Assembly (NCBI GenBank): GCA_040387855.1
Contig: JAZKCY010000001.1
Span: 381,857 to 445,856 of the forward strand
Direction of reading: 5' to 3'
DNA length: 64,000 nucleotides
Source: Patescibacteria group bacterium
GTDB lineage: Bacteria > Patescibacteriota > Minisyncoccia > Phycocordibacterales > JAKAEA01
A program made the translations under genes and the position numbers. Each line of letters opens with the position of its first letter. Position 1 is the stretch's first letter. The notes beneath the pieces are model-generated. The model ran no database searches. It was given only the letters and a program-made list of their open reading frames with translations, and was not told the origin of the DNA. This document shows, in pieces, positions 3,542 through 60,849 of this stretch.

Positions 3542-3608
3542 ATGCCCTGTACTTTAGCACTAATAGTTAAAATATAAAAAAAGTCGAATCTTGCCTCAAG
3601 CAAGTCGA

Positions 3609-3893
3609 CTAGGTTCCTCCGGGATCAGGGCCTCCACCACGCGCGTTCCACGTGGAGAGGGTATTGCCCCGGTCGTCTGCGAACTTGTGGGCGGCGTCGA
3701 ACACCTTTTGGGTCGTGTCGCCACCCACCTCGTGGAGGAAGGTGTACCTATCTGCCGGCGGAGTATCATCGCTGAATTCGTCGGGATACTCCGTGTGATC
3801 GTAGAAGGCCGTCATGGACCTTCCATCACTGCAGGCGTAAATCCGACCGCGATTGTAGAGTTCACGATCAAGCATCTCAGGTCGCGTATTCAT
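3609..3893 (-). CDS. Hypothetical acidic protein encoded in a ~60% GC islet
   Basis: 94-aa ORF. Its third codon positions are strongly GC-biased, unlike its neighbours. The opposite-strand ORF (3591..3950) is Arg/Gly-rich and reads as antisense. No recognisable domain. Confidence 0.4.
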   Translation of the reverse strand: MNTRPEMLDRELYNRGRIYACSDGRSMTAFYDHTEYPDEFSDDTPPADRYTFLHEVGGDTTQKVFDAAHKFADDRGNTLSTWNARGGGPDPGGT

Positions 3894-3986
3894 AAGACGC
3901 TCCCATGCGGCGAGGTTTGGTTGGGGTCTGAGATTATAATGCGCTACTGACTATAAAAGTCAACCACTATTTGCTAAGATAGGAAT

Positions 3987-5793: not shown

Positions 5794-6273
5794 TTAGTTT
5801 GCCGGGGTGGCGAGCTTGGCGGACAGTTCGTCCAAGCTCCTCTTGAGGTACCAGGCCTGGAACTCGATCTGCTTCATCATCTCGAGCCGGAGCTGGCTGA
5901 TCACCGCTTCGAGGGTGACCGTGTCCTCCTTGTTCGCTGGCTCGTTGGCGTTCTTGGCCATGAGCCGGCGCGCGACGGTGCGGAGCGTCGCGCACTTCTC
6001 CAGGCGGTCCCGGTTGAAGATGATCGAGAGTCCCTCGTCGGCGCTCAGGTTGGGGAACCTCTCCACGTCCTTGAGCAGGACGCCGACCGTCCGGCTCTCG
6101 TTCTCCGACTGCTTGAGCAGGTCGGTGTTGCCGGCGGCTCGCTCCTTGAGGAACTGCGCCTTGAGTTCCTGGAGGTTGGCCTGCTCTGCCGGCTTGGTGG
6201 TGGCGTCGGCGGCCATGAGCTGGCTCGGCATGAACGCGAGCAGGATCCCGAAGAGGGCGATGGATCGCAGCAT
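5794..6273 (-). CDS. Secreted coiled-coil hypothetical protein encoded in a ~60% GC islet
   Basis: Begins MLRSIALFGILLAFMPSQLMAADA (Sec signal with AxA site), preceded by GGAAGGAAG as the SD. High-GC codon usage. Both strands in 5735..6372 have long open frames, as expected for GC-rich DNA. I picked this frame for its signal peptide and protein-like composition. Confidence 0.45.
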   Translation of the reverse strand: MLRSIALFGILLAFMPSQLMAADATTKPAEQANLQELKAQFLKERAAGNTDLLKQSENESRTVGVLLKDVERFPNLSADEGLSIIFNRDRLEKCATLRTVARRLMAKNANEPANKEDTVTLEAVISQLRLEMMKQIEFQAWYLKRSLDELSAKLATPAN

Positions 6274-6445
6274 ACGATGCTTCCTTCCGTAATGAACTAA
6301 AACGAGTAAGGTGGCCGAAGTAGCAACCTTTAACTCCTTGCACTGTATACTACACATCTTACACTCTGTCAATAAAATGATGAGAGTTACTTTTATTAAT
6401 ACATAGTACTATATTCTTTTTATATAGGATGCTGACTAATATAAA

Positions 6446-7669: not shown

Positions 7670-8215
7670 TTAATGTGAGGTAACTTTGCTAATCCAGTTA
7701 ATAAGGTCTTGAGAAACTTCTTCAGGGGATCGATTACTTGTATCTATAATTACAAAATCATTTTGTTCACTATCTTTTTTCAGAAGGGAAGTAACATAGA
7801 CATTATCTTGGATAAATTTTTCTACTGACTTATTTGTAACTCTTTCAAGATTTTTGATACTTTCTTCTGTTTGATACCTACCTAATAATCTTTTCTCGAG
7901 GTTTTCTTTGTTGATGTCTAAAAAACAAACTACAGGACGTATCTCAAGCTTATTAGAAGCTTCAATTATTTCTGCTGGCTTCATGAAACCACAAATAATA
8001 GTAGATATTCTTTTTAGCAAATTACTTTTGCTTAGTTCTAACCAATATAAAGTCTCTGATTGTCTCCATATTCTATCGACATTATCAGGAACGCCTCGTT
8101 CGTCGAAGTCATGAATTTCAAAATTGTGAGAAAGCTTTGACTGAAGCAGGGGAATAAGAGTAGTTTTGCCTACGCCATTTGGACCGATGATAAGGAATAT
8201 GTTTGAGCTATTCAT
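7670..8215 (-). CDS. P-loop NTPase / small-molecule kinase-like protein (AAA_33/AAA_18-type)
   Basis: Walker A IIGPNGVGKTT at the N-terminus. I chose the start at MNSSNIF (8215). Confidence 0.5.
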   Translation of the reverse strand: MNSSNIFLIIGPNGVGKTTLIPLLQSKLSHNFEIHDFDERGVPDNVDRIWRQSETLYWLELSKSNLLKRISTIICGFMKPAEIIEASNKLEIRPVVCFLDINKENLEKRLLGRYQTEESIKNLERVTNKSVEKFIQDNVYVTSLLKKDSEQNDFVIIDTSNRSPEEVSQDLINWISKVTSH

Positions 8216-8544: not shown

Positions 8545-8955
8545 ATGAGTATCAATATCAAAGCTACGAATTTGGAGTTAACAACAGAAATCGACGGGTA
8601 TCTTACAAAAAAGCTTGAATCATTGAAACATATTGTTGATTTTGATGCAGATAATGCTTTCGCTCAGGTAGAACTTGCAAAGACAACAAATCATCACAAA
8701 ACAACAGAAAGCATGTATCGTGCAGAAATAAATTACCGTGTTGATGGTATGAATGGCCGAGTAGTGAGTGAGAATGAAGATCTTAATGCTGCTATTGATG
8801 AAATGAAAGATCAGCTCGCTCGAGAAATCAAAGCAAAGCAAGAAAAGGACAGAGATGATAAGCGACATGGCGGAGCAGAGCTCAAACAAATGTCACGAGA
8901 AGATGGAGAAGCTGTAGCCGATGAAGTAGATGATAAATACGAAGACGTTCAGTAA
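8545..8955 (+). CDS. hpf: Ribosome hibernation-promoting factor / RaiA family (short form) with an acidic C-terminal tail
   Basis: MSINIKATNLELTTEIDGYLTKKLESL... is the HPF/YfiA signature. Confidence 0.8.
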   Translation: MSINIKATNLELTTEIDGYLTKKLESLKHIVDFDADNAFAQVELAKTTNHHKTTESMYRAEINYRVDGMNGRVVSENEDLNAAIDEMKDQLAREIKAKQEKDRDDKRHGGAELKQMSREDGEAVADEVDDKYEDVQ

Positions 8956-52857: not shown

Positions 52858-52929
52858 GGCCTCATCGTCTAACGGTTAGGACAGAAGCTTCTCAAGCTTT
52901 AAATCGGGGTTCGATTCCCCGTGAGGTCA
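52858..52929 (+). tRNA. tRNA-Glu (anticodon CUC)
   Basis: Hand fold. Acceptor GGCCUCA/UGAGGUC with one G-U pair. Anticodon stem GAAGC/GCUUU. Loop UUCUCAA. T arm CGGGG-UUCGAUU-CCCCG. Discriminator A. Confidence 0.75.
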
Positions 52930-52976
52930 CATTTACTCTCAAAATCACATCAGTATGGGTGTGCTATACTTCACCC

Positions 52977-54209
52977 ATGCCTGATAAGTCTCCTACAGAA
53001 AAACAGCGAGAAATGAGAGATAAGATAGTCGGAGATCAAAAGCGCCTAGGTGCTGTTGAGCAAACGACCCTTGTTAATTCCATCGAGGAAGAGTCATTCG
53101 ATCGTCTCACACGCCTTGCTTCAAAGCTATTAAAGACTCCTGTCTCATTTGTTACGCTTCTCGAAAAAGATCGTGATTTTGTGAAGAGTCATTATGGTCT
53201 GCCTCAGCCTATTTCAGAAAGCCGAGAAATTACTGCTCATCCTTCTTTTTGCCAACATATAATCACTCATCGTGAGCCTCTTATTATTGAAGATGCTCGT
53301 ACTTCTGAAATATTTAAAGATTTTCCATCTGTTAAACACATGGGTGTTGTGGCATATGCGGGAATGCCACTTATCACTCCTGAAGGGTATGCACTAGGTA
53401 CATGCTGTGTTCTTGATTTCAAAAAACGAAGTTGGACCGATGATGAAATTGAAATTCTCTCCGAGCTCACTAAATCAGTTTTAACTGAAATAGAATTGCG
53501 TAAACTTACTGTGAAACTTGAGAAAGAGACCGCTACAAAAGATGAATTCATTTCTATTGCTGCTCATGAGTTGAAGACACCTTTAACCAGTCTTAAAATG
53601 TTTTCTCAACTTTTACATAAAAAGATGATTATGGAGAAAGAAGAGCGTTTTATACCTGAGGTCAAAAAAATTGATGGGCAAGTCACAAAGATTCATAGTC
53701 TCATTTCACAGCTTTTTGATACAAGCTCAATGCAGAGAAGCAACATTTCCCTGCAAAAAAATGATGTAATTATTAATGAACTTATTGAAAAGACCGTAGA
53801 AGAATTTGTTGGCGATACATCAGAAGGGAAGCCCCCAATTATATTCACTACACAAGCTCTCTTTACCGTTTGCGTTGATCAAGATCGAATTACTCAGGTA
53901 GTAAGAAATTTACTTTCAAACGCGTTTAAGTATGCGCCGCATTCACAAAAAATTGATATTACTATTGAAGAAATAGATTCTCGTATAAAAGTATCTGTAA
54001 AAGATTATGGTCCAGGTATTTCAGAAGTTGAATCAAAAAAGATTTTTGATCGATTTTATCAAGTAAAAAATCCTAATGATCATGTGCCTGTCGGATTAGG
54101 ACTTGGATTGTATATTTGTGCAACGATTATTCAGGCGCATGGTGGTGTACTTGGTGTGGAAAGTGAGTTGGGTAAAGGTTCTACCTTTTATTTTACACTG
54201 CCAAAATAG
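52977..54209 (+). CDS. Cytoplasmic sensor histidine kinase with N-terminal GAF domain (orphan, no response regulator nearby)
   Basis: GAF-like region, HisKA H-box (AAHELKTPLTSL) and HATPase_c G-boxes (GLGLGLYIC...GKGSTFYFTLP). No TM. Start could be the GTG at 52959. Confidence 0.75.
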   Translation: MPDKSPTEKQREMRDKIVGDQKRLGAVEQTTLVNSIEEESFDRLTRLASKLLKTPVSFVTLLEKDRDFVKSHYGLPQPISESREITAHPSFCQHIITHREPLIIEDARTSEIFKDFPSVKHMGVVAYAGMPLITPEGYALGTCCVLDFKKRSWTDDEIEILSELTKSVLTEIELRKLTVKLEKETATKDEFISIAAHELKTPLTSLKMFSQLLHKKMIMEKEERFIPEVKKIDGQVTKIHSLISQLFDTSSMQRSNISLQKNDVIINELIEKTVEEFVGDTSEGKPPIIFTTQALFTVCVDQDRITQVVRNLLSNAFKYAPHSQKIDITIEEIDSRIKVSVKDYGPGISEVESKKIFDRFYQVKNPNDHVPVGLGLGLYICATIIQAHGGVLGVESELGKGSTFYFTLPK

Positions 54210-54326
54210 TTTGTTGAAGTTTGATTTTATTCTTCTATTTAGATACTCTAGCCTACAGAGTCGAGCAATCGACAAAGCTTTTGTACGCAGCTTGAAGCGT
54301 ACCGTTTGACAAGGAAAGGAAACGAC

Positions 54327-55010
54327 ATGTTTCCACAGAGAATTCGTGACCAACGGGGGTGGATCAAGGTGTATGAGGAACAGGGGGCCTACTGGCGACA
54401 CAATGGCCATGCCACTGCTCCTCATGCACTCCTCACAAAGGGAGATCACTCTGACGGTTTCTTTTTGAGCAGACTTGTCACGGATGACGATACGTTGCTG
54501 GGTGAAGCGTCCTCAGATCTGATGGACGCTTCGCGTGAGATTCTTGATCTGTGGAAGGTTAAGCGGATCGTAGGGCCTCAAACCGGCGCGACCAAACTCG
54601 CCCAAGCAGTCGCTGGGAAGATGCTGTTGGTCACCGGCAACAGCGTCGGTTGGGCTTCGCCAAAGAAGCCTGATGATGGCAAAGGCCCGATGACCTTCGA
54701 CGATCCTGCCAACATGGTCATGCCGGGGGAGATCGTCCTTCTCTGCGAGGACGTGGTGACCACTGGCGGTAGCGTGAAGCAGGCTGCCGATGCTGTCACG
54801 GCTGCAGGTGGGATCGTCCTGCCGTTTGTCCTTTCCCTCGTGAATCGTGGAGGACTTGAAGTTGCCCACGGTCGGAAGGTGATCGCGCTCATCAATCAGC
54901 CGATGAAGACTTGGTCACCGGCCGACTGCCCGTTGTGCCCGCGTTCCGAGGCGATCAGTCCCAAGCGCCCGGATGGCAATTGGCTTCGTCTCACCAAACA
55001 TGCTGCCTGA
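54327..55010 (+). CDS. Type I phosphoribosyltransferase (orotate PRTase-like) encoded in a ~60% GC islet
   Basis: PRPP-binding motif IVLLCEDVVTTGGSV. Overall orotate-PRTase-like order. AAGGAAAGGA is the SD. GC-rich third codon positions. Confidence 0.6.
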   Translation: MFPQRIRDQRGWIKVYEEQGAYWRHNGHATAPHALLTKGDHSDGFFLSRLVTDDDTLLGEASSDLMDASREILDLWKVKRIVGPQTGATKLAQAVAGKMLLVTGNSVGWASPKKPDDGKGPMTFDDPANMVMPGEIVLLCEDVVTTGGSVKQAADAVTAAGGIVLPFVLSLVNRGGLEVAHGRKVIALINQPMKTWSPADCPLCPRSEAISPKRPDGNWLRLTKHAA

Positions 55011-55056
55011 CAACAGGTGGTTTTTTTATTATCTAAATAGAAGCTATACTATCCTT

Positions 55057-55587
55057 ATGAATTACATCTATCACTGGGTGCCAGAAGATATGCAAGGAGA
55101 TACACTTTATCCATTAAATATACTAAAAGATCTCCATCCAGATTTGTATGCAACAGAAGCTTTAAAATATACAGGACGTGAACGAGTAATGCAGCAACAA
55201 ATTCCAATACTCAATTGTTTATGGAATGATGTTATTCATTTTTCTCCCATTCATCCATGGATAATTAAACAAGCACTTATTGATGCAGGAAGAACAAAAT
55301 CATTTACAACAAGTTTTTTTGAAATTGATCCACACCTTTTAACTCCAGAAAATACTATTGTCTATTTACATAAACACACGGACAAAACACATAAAATGAC
55401 TGAAGAGAACTTTGCCAAATTTGATCCAGATAATGTTGGTCAGTATGCAGAGCTTCCTCAAGTTACAAAAGACTACTATAAAGAAATGTATGGAAAAGGG
55501 GAGCGACCACTATTATTTGTAGGAGTACCGCATATTTTATATAAAGGTTCTATTAATACTAATGAAATAAAAAGAATCAGCTTGTAA
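55057..55587 (+). CDS. Hypothetical protein (host-like low GC) between two GC-rich islets
   Basis: 176-aa ORF. No domain recognised. Confidence 0.4.
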   Translation: MNYIYHWVPEDMQGDTLYPLNILKDLHPDLYATEALKYTGRERVMQQQIPILNCLWNDVIHFSPIHPWIIKQALIDAGRTKSFTTSFFEIDPHLLTPENTIVYLHKHTDKTHKMTEENFAKFDPDNVGQYAELPQVTKDYYKEMYGKGERPLLFVGVPHILYKGSINTNEIKRISL

Positions 55588-55591
55588 TGTT

Positions 55592-55619
55592 TTGACAGTA
55601 AAGGTAGATATGGTATAAA
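55592..55619 (+). promoter_or_regulatory. Near-consensus sigma70-type promoter TTGACA-N16-TATAAA (extended TGg) driving the GC-rich ORF at 55643
   Basis: ttgaca at 55592-55597 and tggtataaa at 55611-55619. Followed by AAAGGAG-N7-ATG. Confidence 0.5.
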
Positions 55620-55642
55620 GCAGGCTGAAAGGAGAACCTTCC

Positions 55643-56035
55643 ATGGCTAAAAAGCCTGCTGCTCGCGTTCGTCGTGGAGTAGACTTCGTCGAACAAATGA
55701 GGGTGTTACTCGCTAATGCAAAGTTCGAGGCTGGAAACGTCTACCATCGAACGGCTGTCGATGTCCTCGTGCTCATAGACGATGCTCGACAGCCGCGAAG
55801 CGAAGACCCATTACCCATTGTTAGGGTAAAGTGCAATGCACGATCCAGGAGGATCGCTGATTGGCTCGGGCTCGAGGTTGCACTTTTTTCAGTTGAGCAA
55901 AAAGCTGTCGTTGCCACAGGGACACTCAACATCGATGGTGAAGTGTGTTTTCGGAACACTAAGCCAGGTGCATATGAGCTTCGACCGTGGTCTGTTGAGC
56001 AAAATACATCCGTCCCCCCAGAGGTTAATTCTTAG
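55643..56035 (+). CDS. Hypothetical protein encoded in a ~55-58% GC islet
   Basis: 130 aa. Strong SD. High-GC codon usage. No recognisable domain. Confidence 0.45.
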   Translation: MAKKPAARVRRGVDFVEQMRVLLANAKFEAGNVYHRTAVDVLVLIDDARQPRSEDPLPIVRVKCNARSRRIADWLGLEVALFSVEQKAVVATGTLNIDGEVCFRNTKPGAYELRPWSVEQNTSVPPEVNS

Positions 56036-56152
56036 GGTGGCGGTTTTTTTATTGACATCCTACTCAACGATACGATACACTTATTTATAAGTATGAAAAC
56101 ATACGCACAACATTTTGGTTTTGCCGTCCGACCCGTCTTTATTCCTATCCAT

Positions 56153-56236
56153 GGGAGATGTTTTGCTGTATATAAAAACTAATTTTGTTTTAAATATAAT
56201 TTTTAGAAACATCTCCCGCAAGGAGATGTTTTTGTT
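56153..56236 (+). promoter_or_regulatory. Three copies of the GGAGATGTTTT element arranged as mutually exclusive hairpins (A ... A' loop A + T-run): attenuator-like leader or terminator
   Basis: gggagatgtttt at 56153-64. Its complement aaacatctccc is at 56206-16. ggagatgttttt at 56222-33 is followed by gttt. The A'-A pairing makes a 10-bp stem with a cgcaa loop and a U-tract. Confidence 0.45.
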
Positions 56237-56337
56237 TGGAATATGTGCGGTACTTGAGGTAATGCATATGTTCCAGACTGGATGTTTGGAGTTTGCAACG
56301 TAGCAAGCTTGTTCTTTCAATCAGATTGGAGTACGTC

Positions 56338-56811
56338 ATGAGTCTTGTTCATGTTGAGGCTACCCGTGGCAGTGTCGCACTCACGATCTCGGCCGTCGCC
56401 GGTACTCGAGCCTGTGCTGTGCTCGATCGTTTGGCTGAGCCTCACAACGGCACAAAAACCATCTCGGTCTTTCCCGAACCATGGGTCGACAATCGTCGGC
56501 ATGGTCTCGTGACCTTGGTGAAAGGGATCGATGTGAAGATCCCACTCACACTTGTGCGGGTGAATCGATCAGAGGATGCTGAGGGTGTGCTCATGGTCGA
56601 TGCCATGGGTGTCGATGTGACATTATTCTCAATGCCGTACCGAGTGGATGAAGGACGAGGGTTGTGTCTCATGTCCATCGGTGCTCATGTCGTCGACGGA
56701 CAGATCGACAAGATCGCTCGCAATGTTCTGGCCATTCTTGCTGCATGCACAAGCTTTGCTAAGGATGCTCAGGGTCGAATGTATTTTGATCCACATCTGA
56801 AGCTCAGCTAG
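56338..56811 (+). CDS. Hypothetical protein encoded in a ~60% GC islet
   Basis: 157 aa from ATG 56338. High-GC codon usage. No confident domain. Confidence 0.45.
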   Translation: MSLVHVEATRGSVALTISAVAGTRACAVLDRLAEPHNGTKTISVFPEPWVDNRRHGLVTLVKGIDVKIPLTLVRVNRSEDAEGVLMVDAMGVDVTLFSMPYRVDEGRGLCLMSIGAHVVDGQIDKIARNVLAILAACTSFAKDAQGRMYFDPHLKLS

Positions 56812-56822
56812 GTGCAAGTATT

Positions 56823-56850
56823 CTGGAAGCGTATCGCTTCCAGTTTTTTA
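56823..56850. terminator. Rho-independent terminator ctggaagcg-tat-cgcttccag + TTTTTT (bidirectional, between convergent genes)
   Basis: 9-bp GC-rich stem followed by a U-tract. The minus-strand gene ends at 56848. Confidence 0.7.
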
Positions 56851-57447
56851 TTTGGGAAAATATCTTTGCTCGGCAAATGTTAATTCTGCTTCAGACAATT
56901 CTTTTTTGCTTGCAAATGCCCATAGCTCAAAATCTTGTATTCGTCTTTTCCCAATTACAGATTTAAAGCCAACTGATTTCAAAGAATATAAAAGTACAGG
57001 AAGCGTAAAACCTGTTTTATGTGTCATATATGTTTTACCTTCTGCTATTGCTTTGCGAAAACCATAGAGCATATCTAAAGGGGTGACTGGACCCTCAGGG
57101 GACATATATATTTCTTCAAGTAATTTACCCTCAGCCACTAAAGATGCAATAGCTTGAAGATCTGGGCATGCGATAAGCACAAATCCATCAGAGTTAAGAA
57201 CACGAATAAATTCATCAAATGCTTTGTGAACCTCTTGTGGATAGAGATGTTCTACGGTATGAGATGTAAACACAGCATCAAAAGATTCTGTGGCTATTTG
57301 TGGCATATTGGTTATATCACCAACAACATCTGGTTTTAGTTCGGGATCAAGATCTAATCGTGTTTCTTTCCATTCATCAGGTTCAAATGATACAGGGATT
57401 TCTCGGTAGGTCTTTTCACCACTACCTGCATGTAAAAGTGATTTCAT
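56848..57447 (-). CDS. Class I SAM-dependent methyltransferase (Methyltransf_11-like)
   Basis: Typical motif spacing (DVVGDITNMP, FDAVFTSHTVEHL, LNSDGFVLIACPD). Confidence 0.6.
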   Translation of the reverse strand: MKSLLHAGSGEKTYREIPVSFEPDEWKETRLDLDPELKPDVVGDITNMPQIATESFDAVFTSHTVEHLYPQEVHKAFDEFIRVLNSDGFVLIACPDLQAIASLVAEGKLLEEIYMSPEGPVTPLDMLYGFRKAIAEGKTYMTHKTGFTLPVLLYSLKSVGFKSVIGKRRIQDFELWAFASKKELSEAELTFAEQRYFPK

Positions 57448-57467: not shown

Positions 57468-58295
57468 TTAATACACTCGCTCAATATTATCTAAATGTTC
57501 TTGATACGTTCGTGCTGTATGGATCTTTCCATTGTCATCATGCAAATAGAAAAATGCATCTGTTTTTCCAGGATTTAATGCTGCTTCAATTGCAGCTTCA
57601 CCAGGATTTGAAATTGCTGATGGGGGAAGTCCTTTGTTTTTGTACGTATTAAATGGTGATTCGATGTATTTGTCAGCAGGGACTACTTTTGGCCACCACT
57701 TAGTCTTACTACCTTTTGCATATTGAAGTGTGGCATCCATATCGAGTGACATTCCTTCAAAGAGTCGATTCCAGATCACACCTGAAATAATCTTCATGTC
57801 ACTTTTACTTCCTGCTTCTCGTTGAATGATAGAAGCTATTTTAATTGCAGTGTCCATATTAATGACATTTGTTTTAAGCTTTTCATTGCTCTCAACTACT
57901 TCTTCATTAAATGCAGTTATGATCTTTTTACTTACATCAGGTGCTTTTGCACGAAGGGGGACTACATAATTGCCAGGGAAAAAATATCCTTCAGTTGCAC
58001 CTTTGGTTGCTTCAGAATGAATGGCGAGTAACTTTCGCTTTTCAGTTTCAGACCATCCAAGAGTTTTACCAAATCGTTCAATAACTTCTTCTTTGCGCAT
58101 ACCTTCAGTGATTCGTACATTACGTAAATATGGATTAGCAATATTTTGATACATCTCAACTGCTGTGAGACCAAAATAAGATTTCATCTTAAAAAAATAT
58201 CCACCAAAAATAATACCAATAGAAAGAAACGATATGCCCACTACGAGAAGGCCCGACTTCTTTTTTGATGACTTCTTTTTCTTGAGTTTTTTCAC
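57468..58295 (-). CDS. mltG: Endolytic murein transglycosylase MltG (YceG-like)
   Basis: Lys-rich N-terminus plus TM. YceG domain motifs (GYFFPGNY, GLPPSAISNPGEAAIEAALNP). Confidence 0.8.
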   Translation of the reverse strand: MKKLKKKKSSKKKSGLLVVGISFLSIGIIFGGYFFKMKSYFGLTAVEMYQNIANPYLRNVRITEGMRKEEVIERFGKTLGWSETEKRKLLAIHSEATKGATEGYFFPGNYVVPLRAKAPDVSKKIITAFNEEVVESNEKLKTNVINMDTAIKIASIIQREAGSKSDMKIISGVIWNRLFEGMSLDMDATLQYAKGSKTKWWPKVVPADKYIESPFNTYKNKGLPPSAISNPGEAAIEAALNPGKTDAFFYLHDDNGKIHTARTYQEHLDNIERVY

Positions 58296-59999: not shown

Positions 60000-60040
60000 A
60001 CCCCCAGTCGCCTCTACGACTGGGGGTGGGTTTGGTGTTT
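60000..60040. terminator. GC-rich hairpin cccccagtcg-cctcta-cgactggggg between convergent genes
   Basis: 10-bp perfect stem. T-rich on the minus-strand side. The minus-strand gene ends at 60077. Confidence 0.55.
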
Positions 60041-60076
60041 CGAAACAAAGAGCTGTGAGTTACTGTTGGTATGTCG

Positions 60077-60694
60077 CTACTTCGCGATATCAGCCGCGTG
60101 GGTTTTGAAGTTCACAATGTAGGAGAAGGCTTGCACCTTCCTACCTGAGTTCTTCACAGCCGTGAACGTACCCATTTCTGGGTTGCTCAAGACCTTGGGG
60201 AAGATCTTGATCCGCTTGCCCGGAGCAAGTTCGATCGGTTTCCCATCTTGAAGCCCTTTGAGCGTGACGCTGAACGAGAACGTGTTCTCGACTTCAGCAT
60301 ACGACTCACGGGCTGTCATCATGGGATCGACGTAGAGCTTGTTCTTGGGACGGTCGGCGTTCCTCGGCGGCAGTTCCGGTGTTGCCGGTGCTGTTGTCGG
60401 GGTAGCCACCTTCGCGGGCTGCTGACCAGATTGACCTGTGAGGATCCCGTTTAGGCTGATCAGCTTAGGCGGGGTGAGCTTCACGATGGTCGGCTGGGCT
60501 GGCTTTGCCGCCCGCCTGGTCGATGGCTGGGTTTGCGCGGTCGGCTTGGTTGTCGGTCCCATGGTGCTTTCACCACGCGGACCAAACCAATGAGCCGGCA
60601 GTGGCCAACCTAGATCCTTGAGGTGGTTGATCCCTGCGACACAAGCTCCGAACAGTACGATTCCAACAGCTAACGGAATGGACATCTTAATCAT
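60077..60694 (-). CDS. Membrane-anchored Pro/Thr-rich hypothetical protein encoded in a ~58% GC islet
   Basis: Start MIKMSIPLAVGIVLFGA (a TM helix), preceded by GAGGA as the SD. A P/T/A-rich linker is followed by a ~90-aa C-terminal domain. High-GC codon usage. Confidence 0.45.
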   Translation of the reverse strand: MIKMSIPLAVGIVLFGACVAGINHLKDLGWPLPAHWFGPRGESTMGPTTKPTAQTQPSTRRAAKPAQPTIVKLTPPKLISLNGILTGQSGQQPAKVATPTTAPATPELPPRNADRPKNKLYVDPMMTARESYAEVENTFSFSVTLKGLQDGKPIELAPGKRIKIFPKVLSNPEMGTFTAVKNSGRKVQAFSYIVNFKTHAADIAK

Positions 60695-60849
60695 CGAATT
60701 CCTCGGTAGGACCACAACAAATGGTCTCAGTTTCTCTTGCTGTATTATATCACACTATTATGCATATTGTCAATATATAAAAAGAGGGTAATAATCATGT
60801 GTAATAGCCGTCATTAAAGCCGTAGAATTAGCAGTTAACTATAAAATAT

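Follow-up and report, generated by a model that had tools for sequence, protein, structure and literature searches.

A probable mosaic of independent transcription units in a Patescibacteria genome, including a PyrE-type phosphoribosyltransferase gene behind a conserved leader RNA

Introduction

Positions 54327 to 56811 of the stretch of Patescibacteria DNA analysed here (64,000 nucleotides (nt) in all, referred to as the window) hold four genes on the + strand, whose products are designated A to D. Gene A (54327-55010, 227 amino acids (aa)) encodes a PyrE-type (orotate) phosphoribosyltransferase (PRTase), gene B (55057-55587, 176 aa) encodes a member of a widespread uncharacterised family, and genes C (55643-56035, 130 aa) and D (56338-56811, 157 aa) are orphan open reading frames (ORFans). 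The four-gene run is probably a compositional mosaic of independent units with separate histories and not one system. Upstream of the PRTase there is a conserved structured RNA that probably controls the expression of the orotate-salvage gene, and that is a riboswitch candidate travelling with a mobile pyrE(-pyrF) cassette.

The arrangement proposed here consists of four independent transcription units set in a variable stretch of a genome of approximately 37% GC, with a GAF histidine-kinase gene on one side and the convergent pair of methyltransferase and mltG genes on the other. The first unit would be a laterally acquired pyrE cassette, formed by a promoter, a structured leader RNA of approximately 60 nt, the PyrE-type gene and a weak terminator. 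The second (B) would be a native gene, probably now reliant on read-through from A, while the third and fourth (C and D) would be ORFans of foreign composition, each with its own sigma-70-type promoter and, in the case of D, with an additional terminator/antiterminator gate. The direction and timing of the transfers are presumptive.

Probable independence of the four genes

A first-pass annotation of this DNA had leaned towards reading the four genes as a co-functioning, possibly defence-related set with the PRTase as effector, and this idea does not stand up. Co-occurrence was examined from both sides, at 40 loci with relatives of the PRTase (from a scan of GTDB representative genomes) and at 80 loci with relatives of B (from a metagenome scan). 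Homologues of B, C or D appear at 0/40 of the former, homologues of A, C or D at 0/80 of the latter, and C and D are themselves without homologues. A scan with the PADLOC defence models gave no match to any of the four proteins, and among the neighbouring proteins (a GAF histidine kinase, a methyltransferase and MltG) it returned only matches to generic HATPase or methyltransferase (MTase) domains. No retron or other RNA family was detected, and the PHROG search yielded nothing for a reading in terms of defence. Besides the lack of co-occurrence, the PRTase aligns nearly end to end with genuine PyrE, and both findings are ones that the first-pass annotation had itself named as refuting its proposal.

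Base composition also tells the genes apart. The background of the window is approximately 37% GC, and host genes have a GC content at third codon positions (GC3) of 0.20-0.26. B is host-like (32% GC, GC3 0.20), whereas A (57.7% GC, GC3 0.63), C (50.9% GC; GC1/GC2/GC3 = 0.64/0.43/0.46 for the three codon positions) and D (53.4% GC; 0.64/0.42/0.54) are not, so the earlier description of three GC-rich open reading frames (ORFs) interleaved with one of low GC, all on the + strand, is borne out. The unequal GC3 values of A-D suggest separate origins or separate ages. The junctions in composition are at approximately 54210-54260, 55020-55060, 55590-55640, 56036-56340 and 56812-56850. Separate promoters and terminators were seen along the run, which fits independent transcription units; the statement that the genes have promoters of their own is correct for C and D, holds weakly for A and fails for B, in front of which no promoter could be recognised.

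In several respects the run resembles the genomic islets formed by acquired ORFans, with which it shares sharp compositional boundaries, single-gene units, the absence of homologues and a variable context. It differs from them in lacking any integrase, transposase, att duplication or shared repeat, in the near-consensus promoter and the terminator of each unit, and in the perfect 14-nt inverted repeat found on both sides of one of the units. The test for an integron cassette, a transposon or a miniature inverted-repeat transposable element was negative, with no integrase or transposase among the called genes and a bracketing repeat at A only.

The PyrE-type phosphoribosyltransferase

Judged from its sequence, A is a divergent branch of a PyrE-type family that extends across the Patescibacteria. 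It has 629 homologues, nearly all of them from this group and at approximately 45-53% identity, and it matches Pfam PF00156 (26.9 bits). The profile of its family (positions 21-215) aligns with residues 31-222 of the solved orotate phosphoribosyltransferase (OPRTase) 4paw, the best solved match (E 8.5e-13). The phosphoribosyl pyrophosphate (PRPP) loop of A, EDVVTTGGS, is in register with that of the E. coli enzyme (VLLCEDVVTTGGS aligned with VMLVDDVITAGTA), D142 being invariant and E141 nearly so. The orotate hood SG.HS.GFF is conserved, with F45-F46 aligned with F34-F35 of E. coli, and R174, which is invariant, aligns with E. coli R156. Both the Phe-Phe hood and R156 are elements that we take, from the OPRTase literature, to bind orotate.

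The active site, which the first-pass annotation had singled out for inspection, thus retains the PRPP loop, the Phe-Phe pair and the equivalent of R156. Lysines are also present in the flexible loop, where K113 aligns with E. coli K100 and K114 is invariant in the close family; the length of this loop differs from that of E. coli, so the equivalence of these residues to K100/K103 is not secure.

In 21/40 of the PRTase loci pyrF lies directly downstream on the same strand, and it is the sole conserved neighbour. These pyrF genes score 99.6-170 bits against TIGR01740 (cut-off 92.3), and further pyrE-pyrF pairs were seen beyond the 40 loci. The PyrE-like alignment and the linkage to pyrF in relatives support the hedge of the first-pass annotation, namely that the PRTase could be an enzyme of nucleotide salvage. 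A most likely turns orotate and PRPP into orotidine monophosphate (OMP), and a PyrE(-PyrF) module would convert scavenged orotate to uridine monophosphate (UMP). The role of A would then be pyrimidine salvage in an organism unable to make nucleotides de novo; Patescibacteria are generally without de novo nucleotide synthesis (PMC11665869).

The known enzymes closest to A are those of the short Thermus/Helicobacter type of PyrE (TIGR01367; 4paw). A shares with them the type I PRTase fold, the PRPP loop, the SG.HS..FF hood, the Arg equivalent to E. coli R156, a C-terminal CPLC motif, the near end-to-end alignment with 4paw and, in half of its relatives, pyrF as operon partner. It differs from them in its identity to standard members, which is only approximately 30-36%, in an equivalog score below the cut-off, in an N-terminal extension and a C-terminal tail, in standing without an adjacent pyrF and in a composition that is foreign to its host.

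A conserved leader RNA upstream of the phosphoribosyltransferase

Comparison of the sequences upstream of the PRTase start codons brought out a conserved promoter (-35 TTGATT, -10 TAnTnT) followed by a leader of approximately 60 nt. In the window the leader reads AGA-GTCGA-gcaa-TCGAC-a-AAGC-ttttg-TACGC-a-GCTT-gaa-GCGTA and is followed by AAGGAAAGGA, the ribosome-binding region (54311-54320, +; 54311-54334 with the region of the start codon), and by the ATG at 54327. The structured part (54257-54302, +) begins outside the region delimited by the first-pass annotation, which started at 54327, that is, 5' of the PRTase. The putative promoter of A, TTGATT-17-TACTCT (54221-54249, +), is weak and was read by eye, being below the threshold of the promoter scan; its -35 (TTGATTTTA) and -10 (TAnTnT) elements are kept at other PRTase loci, as in L127 (TTGATT-17-TAGTGT).

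A covariance model of the leader (R1) was built from 17 sequences, one of which is the copy in the window (40.4 bits), with only the two helices P1 and S2 described below. Searched against both strands of 557 kb, R1 gave 22 matches, one of them in the window, and 22/22 immediately precede a PRTase gene. Control contigs amounting to 408 kb yielded 0 matches at E <= 1. R1 also matches sequences that were not in the seed, from loci L017 (36.5 bits), L127 (32.9 bits, E 5e-6), L007 (32.5 bits) and L125 (20.7 bits, E 0.0065), and two of these non-seed matches are additional to the 22. Altogether the leader stands directly upstream of the PRTase in approximately 24/45 loci and nowhere else in the approximately 1 Mb searched. 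Loop lengths change by steps other than multiples of three and the window copy has no in-frame start before 54306, so the conservation is at the level of RNA.

No Rfam 15 family matches the leader, either at gathering thresholds (11 loci) or at E <= 10 (short slices). A full-text search of the literature found no pyrE or orotate riboswitch and nothing relevant on pyrE or orotate in Patescibacteria, and we know of no riboswitch that senses a pyrimidine or orotate.

The leader is predicted to form three helices: a hairpin, P1 (54260-54264 with 54269-54273), and two further helices, S1 (54275-54278 with 54290-54293) and S2 (54283-54288 with 54297-54302), whose interleaving would make an H-type pseudoknot. 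P1 and S2 are established from covariation across the aligned leaders, and both are predicted in the minimum free energy (MFE) fold of the window copy. A MAFFT alignment of 10 cores that is free of gaps has 91% of its cells paired and 5/9 pairs compensatory, with a covariation score of 0.314 against 0.170 +/- 0.029 in shuffles (0/500 reach 0.314); slid controls are only 13-49% paired. With 23 cores aligned by MAFFT without tuning, pairing in S2 reaches 84% and 5/5 of its pairs are compensatory. When the alignment is registered by hand with N padding, P1, S1 and S2 are 93-98% paired and 13/14 pairs are compensatory, a result that 0/500 shuffles reach. By helix, the compensatory pairs are 4/5 in P1, 5/5 in S2 and, on the hand-registered alignment only, 4/4 in S1. 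The covariance-model alignment (A7) was left out of these counts, as its rows with 2-nt junction insertions are mis-registered.

The variants illustrate how the two strands change together: GTCGA/TCGAC, GTCAG/CTGAC, GTCGG/CCGAC, GTAGA/TCTAC, GTTGA/TCAAC and ATCGA/TCGAT in P1; AGGC/GCCT, AAGC/GCTT, AGCC/GGCT, TGGT/ACCA and AGGT/ACCT in S1; and TACGC/GCGTA, CACGC/GCGTG, TGCGT/ACGCA, CACAC/GTGTG and TGCAC/GTGCA in S2.

What the leader may do

Located just upstream of the ribosome-binding site, the leader most likely senses a metabolite of the pathway or binds a regulator, and would in this way control the initiation of translation. In the MFE fold of 54257-54335 the end of the Shine-Dalgarno (SD) sequence and the AUG are enclosed in a 6-bp hairpin, GGAAAC/GUUUCC (54318-54323 with 54329-54334), and this predicted hairpin could act as the expression platform.

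The most specific proposal is that the leader represents a new class of riboswitch for a pyrimidine metabolite (orotate, OMP/UMP or PRPP), carried in a self-contained and repeatedly exchanged pyrE(-pyrF) cassette. This is a tentative proposal that may well prove wrong. The leader resembles the preQ1-II, SAM-II/V and guanidine-III riboswitches in its size and layout (approximately 45-60 nt, with a hairpin and an H-type pseudoknot a few nt before the SD) and in being kept across distant genomes before one gene family. It differs from these small pseudoknotted riboswitches in that it matches no Rfam 15 family in sequence or structure and in that its pseudoknot helix is not statistically secure.

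There is a substantial chance, short of even, that the leader is instead a binding site for a protein (PyrR-like or other), an element of mRNA stability, or a part of a transcription-coupled pyrimidine attenuator. Classical pyr regulation works through proteins or through transcription that is sensitive to uridine triphosphate (UTP), as in PyrR and the pyrBI and pyrE attenuators of E. coli, and this precedent speaks for such a role, together with the small size of the element and the lack of an expression platform conserved in sequence across all copies. On the other hand, a compact shape, a probable pseudoknot, a conserved unpaired AAAG linker and a GCC/GGC core are typical of small riboswitch aptamers, and the movement of the leader with its gene between distant genomes would favour a regulator that is independent of host factors. 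The likeness to PyrR attenuators and to the UTP-sensitive pyrE attenuator of E. coli consists of a cis-acting leader before a pyr gene; the differences are that the copy in the window has no terminator after the motif, that no Rfam PyrR site is matched, and that the architecture is another one.

Signs of mobility around the pyrE cassette

The GC content of the PRTase gene is above that of its flanks in 40/41 loci, by up to 24 points, and in 15/39 loci this gene has the highest GC3 among the long ORFs. Where pyrF is downstream it shares the raised GC, and neighbours other than pyrF are unrelated between loci. Taken together, raised GC and variable contexts suggest repeated lateral transfer of a pyrE(-pyrF) module across the Patescibacteria. 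The closest relative of A (53% identity, L125) is on a contig of 60% GC and its gene has a GC3 of 0.63, the same as A, which is compatible with a GC-rich patescibacterial lineage as the donor of A.

The cassette in the window is bracketed by a perfect 14-nt inverted repeat, with its left arm (CTTCTATTTAGATA) at 54232-54245 and its right arm (TATCTAAATAGAAG) at 55030-55043, a length that 0/5000 shuffles of both flanks reach. No other copy occurs in the window. As a recurrent cassette end the repeat was rejected, given that neither the other PRTase loci nor the other GC-rich units have an equivalent. A reading in which A had inserted itself into the middle of a host palindrome was rejected as well: the left arm is inside the promoter region that is homologous across PRTase loci, and this arm therefore belongs to the cassette.

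After A there is a weak terminator-like hairpin with a U-run (55002-55030, +; -9.8 kcal/mol, z = -1.97), and read-through from it into B is plausible. Units A and C have GG(T/C)GGTTTTTTTATT in common at their 3' ends (55016-55030 and 56039-56053); this is probably a coincidence, by a rough estimate of approximately 0.5 chance pairs in the region, and the copy that follows C does not fold into a stable hairpin (-1.7 kcal/mol).

Three other loci have features of their own. In P0006 the neighbours of the pyrE-pyrF pair are DUF4238 and DUF2726 genes and a serine recombinase (Resolvase/Recombinase domains), which hints at the context of a mobile island. In L007 an imperfect direct repeat of approximately 50 nt (core ACAGTAGTATAGGCAAA) is situated on either side of the PRTase gene, at ~7840-7890 and ~8680-8730, and is possibly an insertion or att-like footprint. 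L032 contains a dispersed repeat with GTTCGAACTGTGTT, present in 8 copies in 15.8 kb (for example at 7822 and 9568), two of which flank the pyrE-pyrF pair.

The ORFans C and D and the leader of D

Among 5.8 billion (5.8e9) proteins C and D match only themselves, and neither has a relative in phages, IMG/VR, metagenome pattern scans or the PDB. Compared with each other, they show a similarity of only 24% over 70 aa (pairwise E 0.01), too slight for a reading as paralogues. The possibility that C or D are degraded remnants of pyrF, or of other neighbours of PRTase relatives, was discarded after a tblastn search of all ORFs neighbouring those relatives against the window, which found nothing in 55000-56900 except one spurious out-of-frame match (E 0.003).

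Upstream of C there is a promoter with an extended -10 (TGn), TTGACA-16-TATAAA (55592-55619, +), which was read by eye; the scan missed it, as its -10 hexamer ends in A. An SD sequence, AGGAG, follows at 55630-55634 (+). The promoter of D, TTGACA-18-TACACT (56052-56081, +), matches at 10/12 positions and precedes a long, AT-rich and structured leader (56085-56337, +; z = -4.65 against shuffles for the fold of 250-261 nt), for which no Rfam match was found. Within this leader a terminator hairpin is predicted at 56204-56234 (+; -15.7 kcal/mol, z = -4.35), with a U-rich tract after it. A copy of the 3' arm of this terminator, GGGAGATGTTTT, is located upstream (56153-56164, +), and in the full-length MFE fold it is paired with the 5' arm of the terminator, so that a role as antiterminator is possible. 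On these predicted folds, the leader of D has a classic terminator/antiterminator arrangement, and the attenuator-like leader of the first-pass annotation is real, with a terminator and an antiterminator that exclude each other, and stands before D. An AT-rich ORF of 50 codons (MGDVLLYIKTNFVLNIIFRNISRKEMFLF…; 56151-56303, +) runs across the whole attenuator without an SD; it may encode a leader peptide or have arisen by chance.

The terminator that closes D (56823-56843, +; -17.6 kcal/mol, z = -5.5) also lies 5 nt beyond the stop codon of the methyltransferase gene that runs towards D. It had been described as strong and bidirectional; it is strong, and it is not clearly bidirectional, with a U-tract on the + strand only.

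It is unlikely that C and D are not protein genes at all, but chance ORFs in decaying foreign GC-rich DNA or sequences that function as RNA. Such a view would account for the lack of homologues in every collection searched, for the uninformative single-sequence AlphaFold2 model of D (predicted local distance difference test (pLDDT) of 35.6), for the shorter versions called by NCBI (112 aa for C and 92 aa for D) and for the presence of overlapping alternative ORFs. It has more difficulty with the GC periodicity in the called frames, where GC1 (0.64) exceeds GC2 (0.42-0.43) as fits coding sequence, with SD motifs at the right spacing from the start codons of C and D, and with near-consensus promoters directly 5' of both and a strong terminator after D. 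Moreover, a reduced genome of 0.98 Mb is expected to delete junk quickly. C and D are presumably expressed.

The family of protein B

B has no match in Pfam, NCBIfam, PADLOC, PHROG or the sequences of the PDB, and belongs to a family of at least 916 cluster representatives (E <= 1e-3). Its relatives include a gene on a Cytobacillus plasmid annotated as 'group-specific protein', sequences from further plasmids of Bacillus and Thioclava, and a single Stenotrophomonas phage sequence. The residues H6, G14, Y38, R41, W56, P67 and H159 are invariant in the family.

An alignment-based AlphaFold2 model of B has a pLDDT of 95. Compared with the PDB by Foldseek, its top matches are almost all ADP-ribosyltransferases and are weak, the best being DarT1 (8baq; E 0.037, TM 0.42), with DarTG, OspC3/CopC and the pertussis, cholera and Plt toxins among the others. 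The model thus points weakly to an ADP-ribosyltransferase-like fold. B also resembles DarT in an N-terminal 'YH' on strand 1, which we take to be a DarT motif. It differs from DarT and other ADP-ribosyltransferase toxins in the weakness of the match, in having no sequence-model match, no macrodomain antitoxin as neighbour and no identified catalytic Glu, and in its recurrent association, which is with S-adenosylmethionine (SAM) methyltransferases.

This association takes several forms. In P0126, P0148, P0146 and P0229 domains of the B family occur in N- or C-terminal fusion with class I SAM or TehB-type methyltransferases, a TerC fragment or a SnoaL-like domain, and a methyltransferase gene adjoins the B homologue on the Cytobacillus plasmid and in approximately 7/80 metagenome loci; at the 80 loci there is no conserved neighbour besides these occasional SAM methyltransferases. 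A functional pair of B with the methyltransferase of the window was considered and rejected, because the window enzyme shows no specific likeness to the MTase domains found in fusions with B homologues. B stands on its own as a gene and starts 46 nt after the weak terminator region of A, from which it may be read through.

Points of doubt and less probable readings

Several observations weigh against the picture presented here. It does not account for the perfect 14-nt inverted repeat around A. The genome has no close relative in the databases by which the insertions could be dated or seen as presence/absence polymorphisms. C and D could be non-functional remnants. With regard to the leader, S1 is only 66% paired on the untuned 23-core alignment, in which rows with longer linkers are shifted, and its strongest support comes from an alignment registered by eye. 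A flexible pseudoknot search on single sequences found 8.6/9 pairs against 7.9/9 in shuffles; since shuffled sequences score nearly as high, this search was dropped as evidence and S1, hence the pseudoknot, is held as likely but not proven. With regard to the enzyme, there is no pyrF within the 64-kb window, and without pyrF OMP would be a dead end. Lastly, A falls below the PyrE equivalog cut-offs of NCBIfam (61.0 against 150.25 for TIGR01367, pyrE_Therm, and 41.1 against 106.8 for TIGR00336).

These low scores are also the first argument for considering A as a PyrE-like enzyme with another substrate, or as a regulatory protein of PRTase fold, that works here without pyrF. The family has an N-terminal extension of its own (W..Y....ALW.HDGN) and a C-terminal NW..LNA.Y tail, A does not conserve E. 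coli K26 and K73, and approximately 19/40 relatives, like the window, are without an adjacent pyrF. Even so, this alternative is improbable: pyrF is the only neighbour that is conserved, the FF motif for stacking orotate is kept together with the R156 equivalent and the PRPP loop, K73 is missing too in Thermus-type PyrE-like sequences of the same alignment, and the best solved relative is an OPRTase.

A new multi-gene system made up of all four, such as an anti-phage one with the PRTase as nucleotide-depleting effector and perhaps an ADP-ribosyltransferase-like B, is hardly credible: the genes are co-oriented and tightly packed, three have a foreign composition, and the PRTase adjoins a protein whose top structural matches are DarT and other ADP-ribosyltransferases and whose homologues occur in a phage and on plasmids, yet co-occurrence is absent from both sides, C and D are unique to this genome, PADLOC matches none of the four and only generic domains in the neighbours, every gene comes with a promoter or terminator of its own, the differing GC3 values (0.63, 0.20, 0.46, 0.54) indicate separate origins, and the PRTase family is linked to pyrF. 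The likeness of A to the PRTase effectors of retrons and anti-phage systems is limited to the PF00156 fold and a small, stand-alone size. It differs from them in having no reverse transcriptase, msr/msd RNA or other partner, no PADLOC match, and a family tied to pyrF and not to defence genes.

Setting of the run and other GC-rich ORFs in the window

The window comes from a contig of 981,549 bp in a metagenome-assembled genome labelled 'Patescibacteria group bacterium', and A is 100% identical to an NCBI protein of that contig, on which the proteins MES2436837-46 belong to this region. The same region is also present on a Logan contig from SRR26324620, and both assemblies may share the same reads. 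On the 5' side of the run are ftsI-murF, tRNA-Glu (52858-52930) and the gene of the GAF-HisKA-HATPase kinase (52959-54209); on the 3' side are the convergent methyltransferase gene (56848-57447) and then mltG/yceG (57468-58295). In a collection of 15 billion proteins the neighbouring proteins have no relative at >=90% identity, and there is thus no closely related genome for comparison.

Other parts of the window are also GC-rich. An ORF at 60077-60715 (-; 57% GC, GC3 0.67, 212 aa) encodes a product with a membrane anchor and a Pro/Thr-rich linker, and has a near-perfect TTGACA-17-TATAAT promoter (~60770-60800) and a strong GC-rich terminator (~60015-60045); it has no family match and no relative in IMG/VR. 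The most foreign-looking ORF of the window, at 5794-6372 (-; probable start 6273; 60% GC, GC3 0.86), encodes a secreted, coiled-coil-like product with a Sec signal (…LMA/ADA), is equipped with a TTGACA-17-TATACA promoter and a terminator, and has no relative in IMG/VR or in the metagenome pattern scan. Finally, a patch at ~3590-3950 (57-58% GC) contains the overlapping ORFs 3591-3950 (+) and 3609-3893 (-) and has no PHROG match.

Implications

Viewed as a candidate system, the run of genes is nothing unusual, and it shows that compositional clustering can mimic an operon. The family of B is large and has a confident model and no annotation, and its putative ADP-ribosyltransferase-like fold, together with the link to SAM methyltransferases, makes its characterisation worthwhile. 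The findings on the pyrE cassette suggest that the Patescibacteria, a phylum thought to rely on external nucleotides, exchange orotate salvage laterally as a trait. If the leader is a riboswitch, it would be the first known to us for orotate or pyrimidine salvage, and a natural, host-independent expression switch for a phylum without genetic tools. Were this the case, nucleotide-auxotrophic cells would gain a plug-in, self-regulating module for the salvage of orotate.

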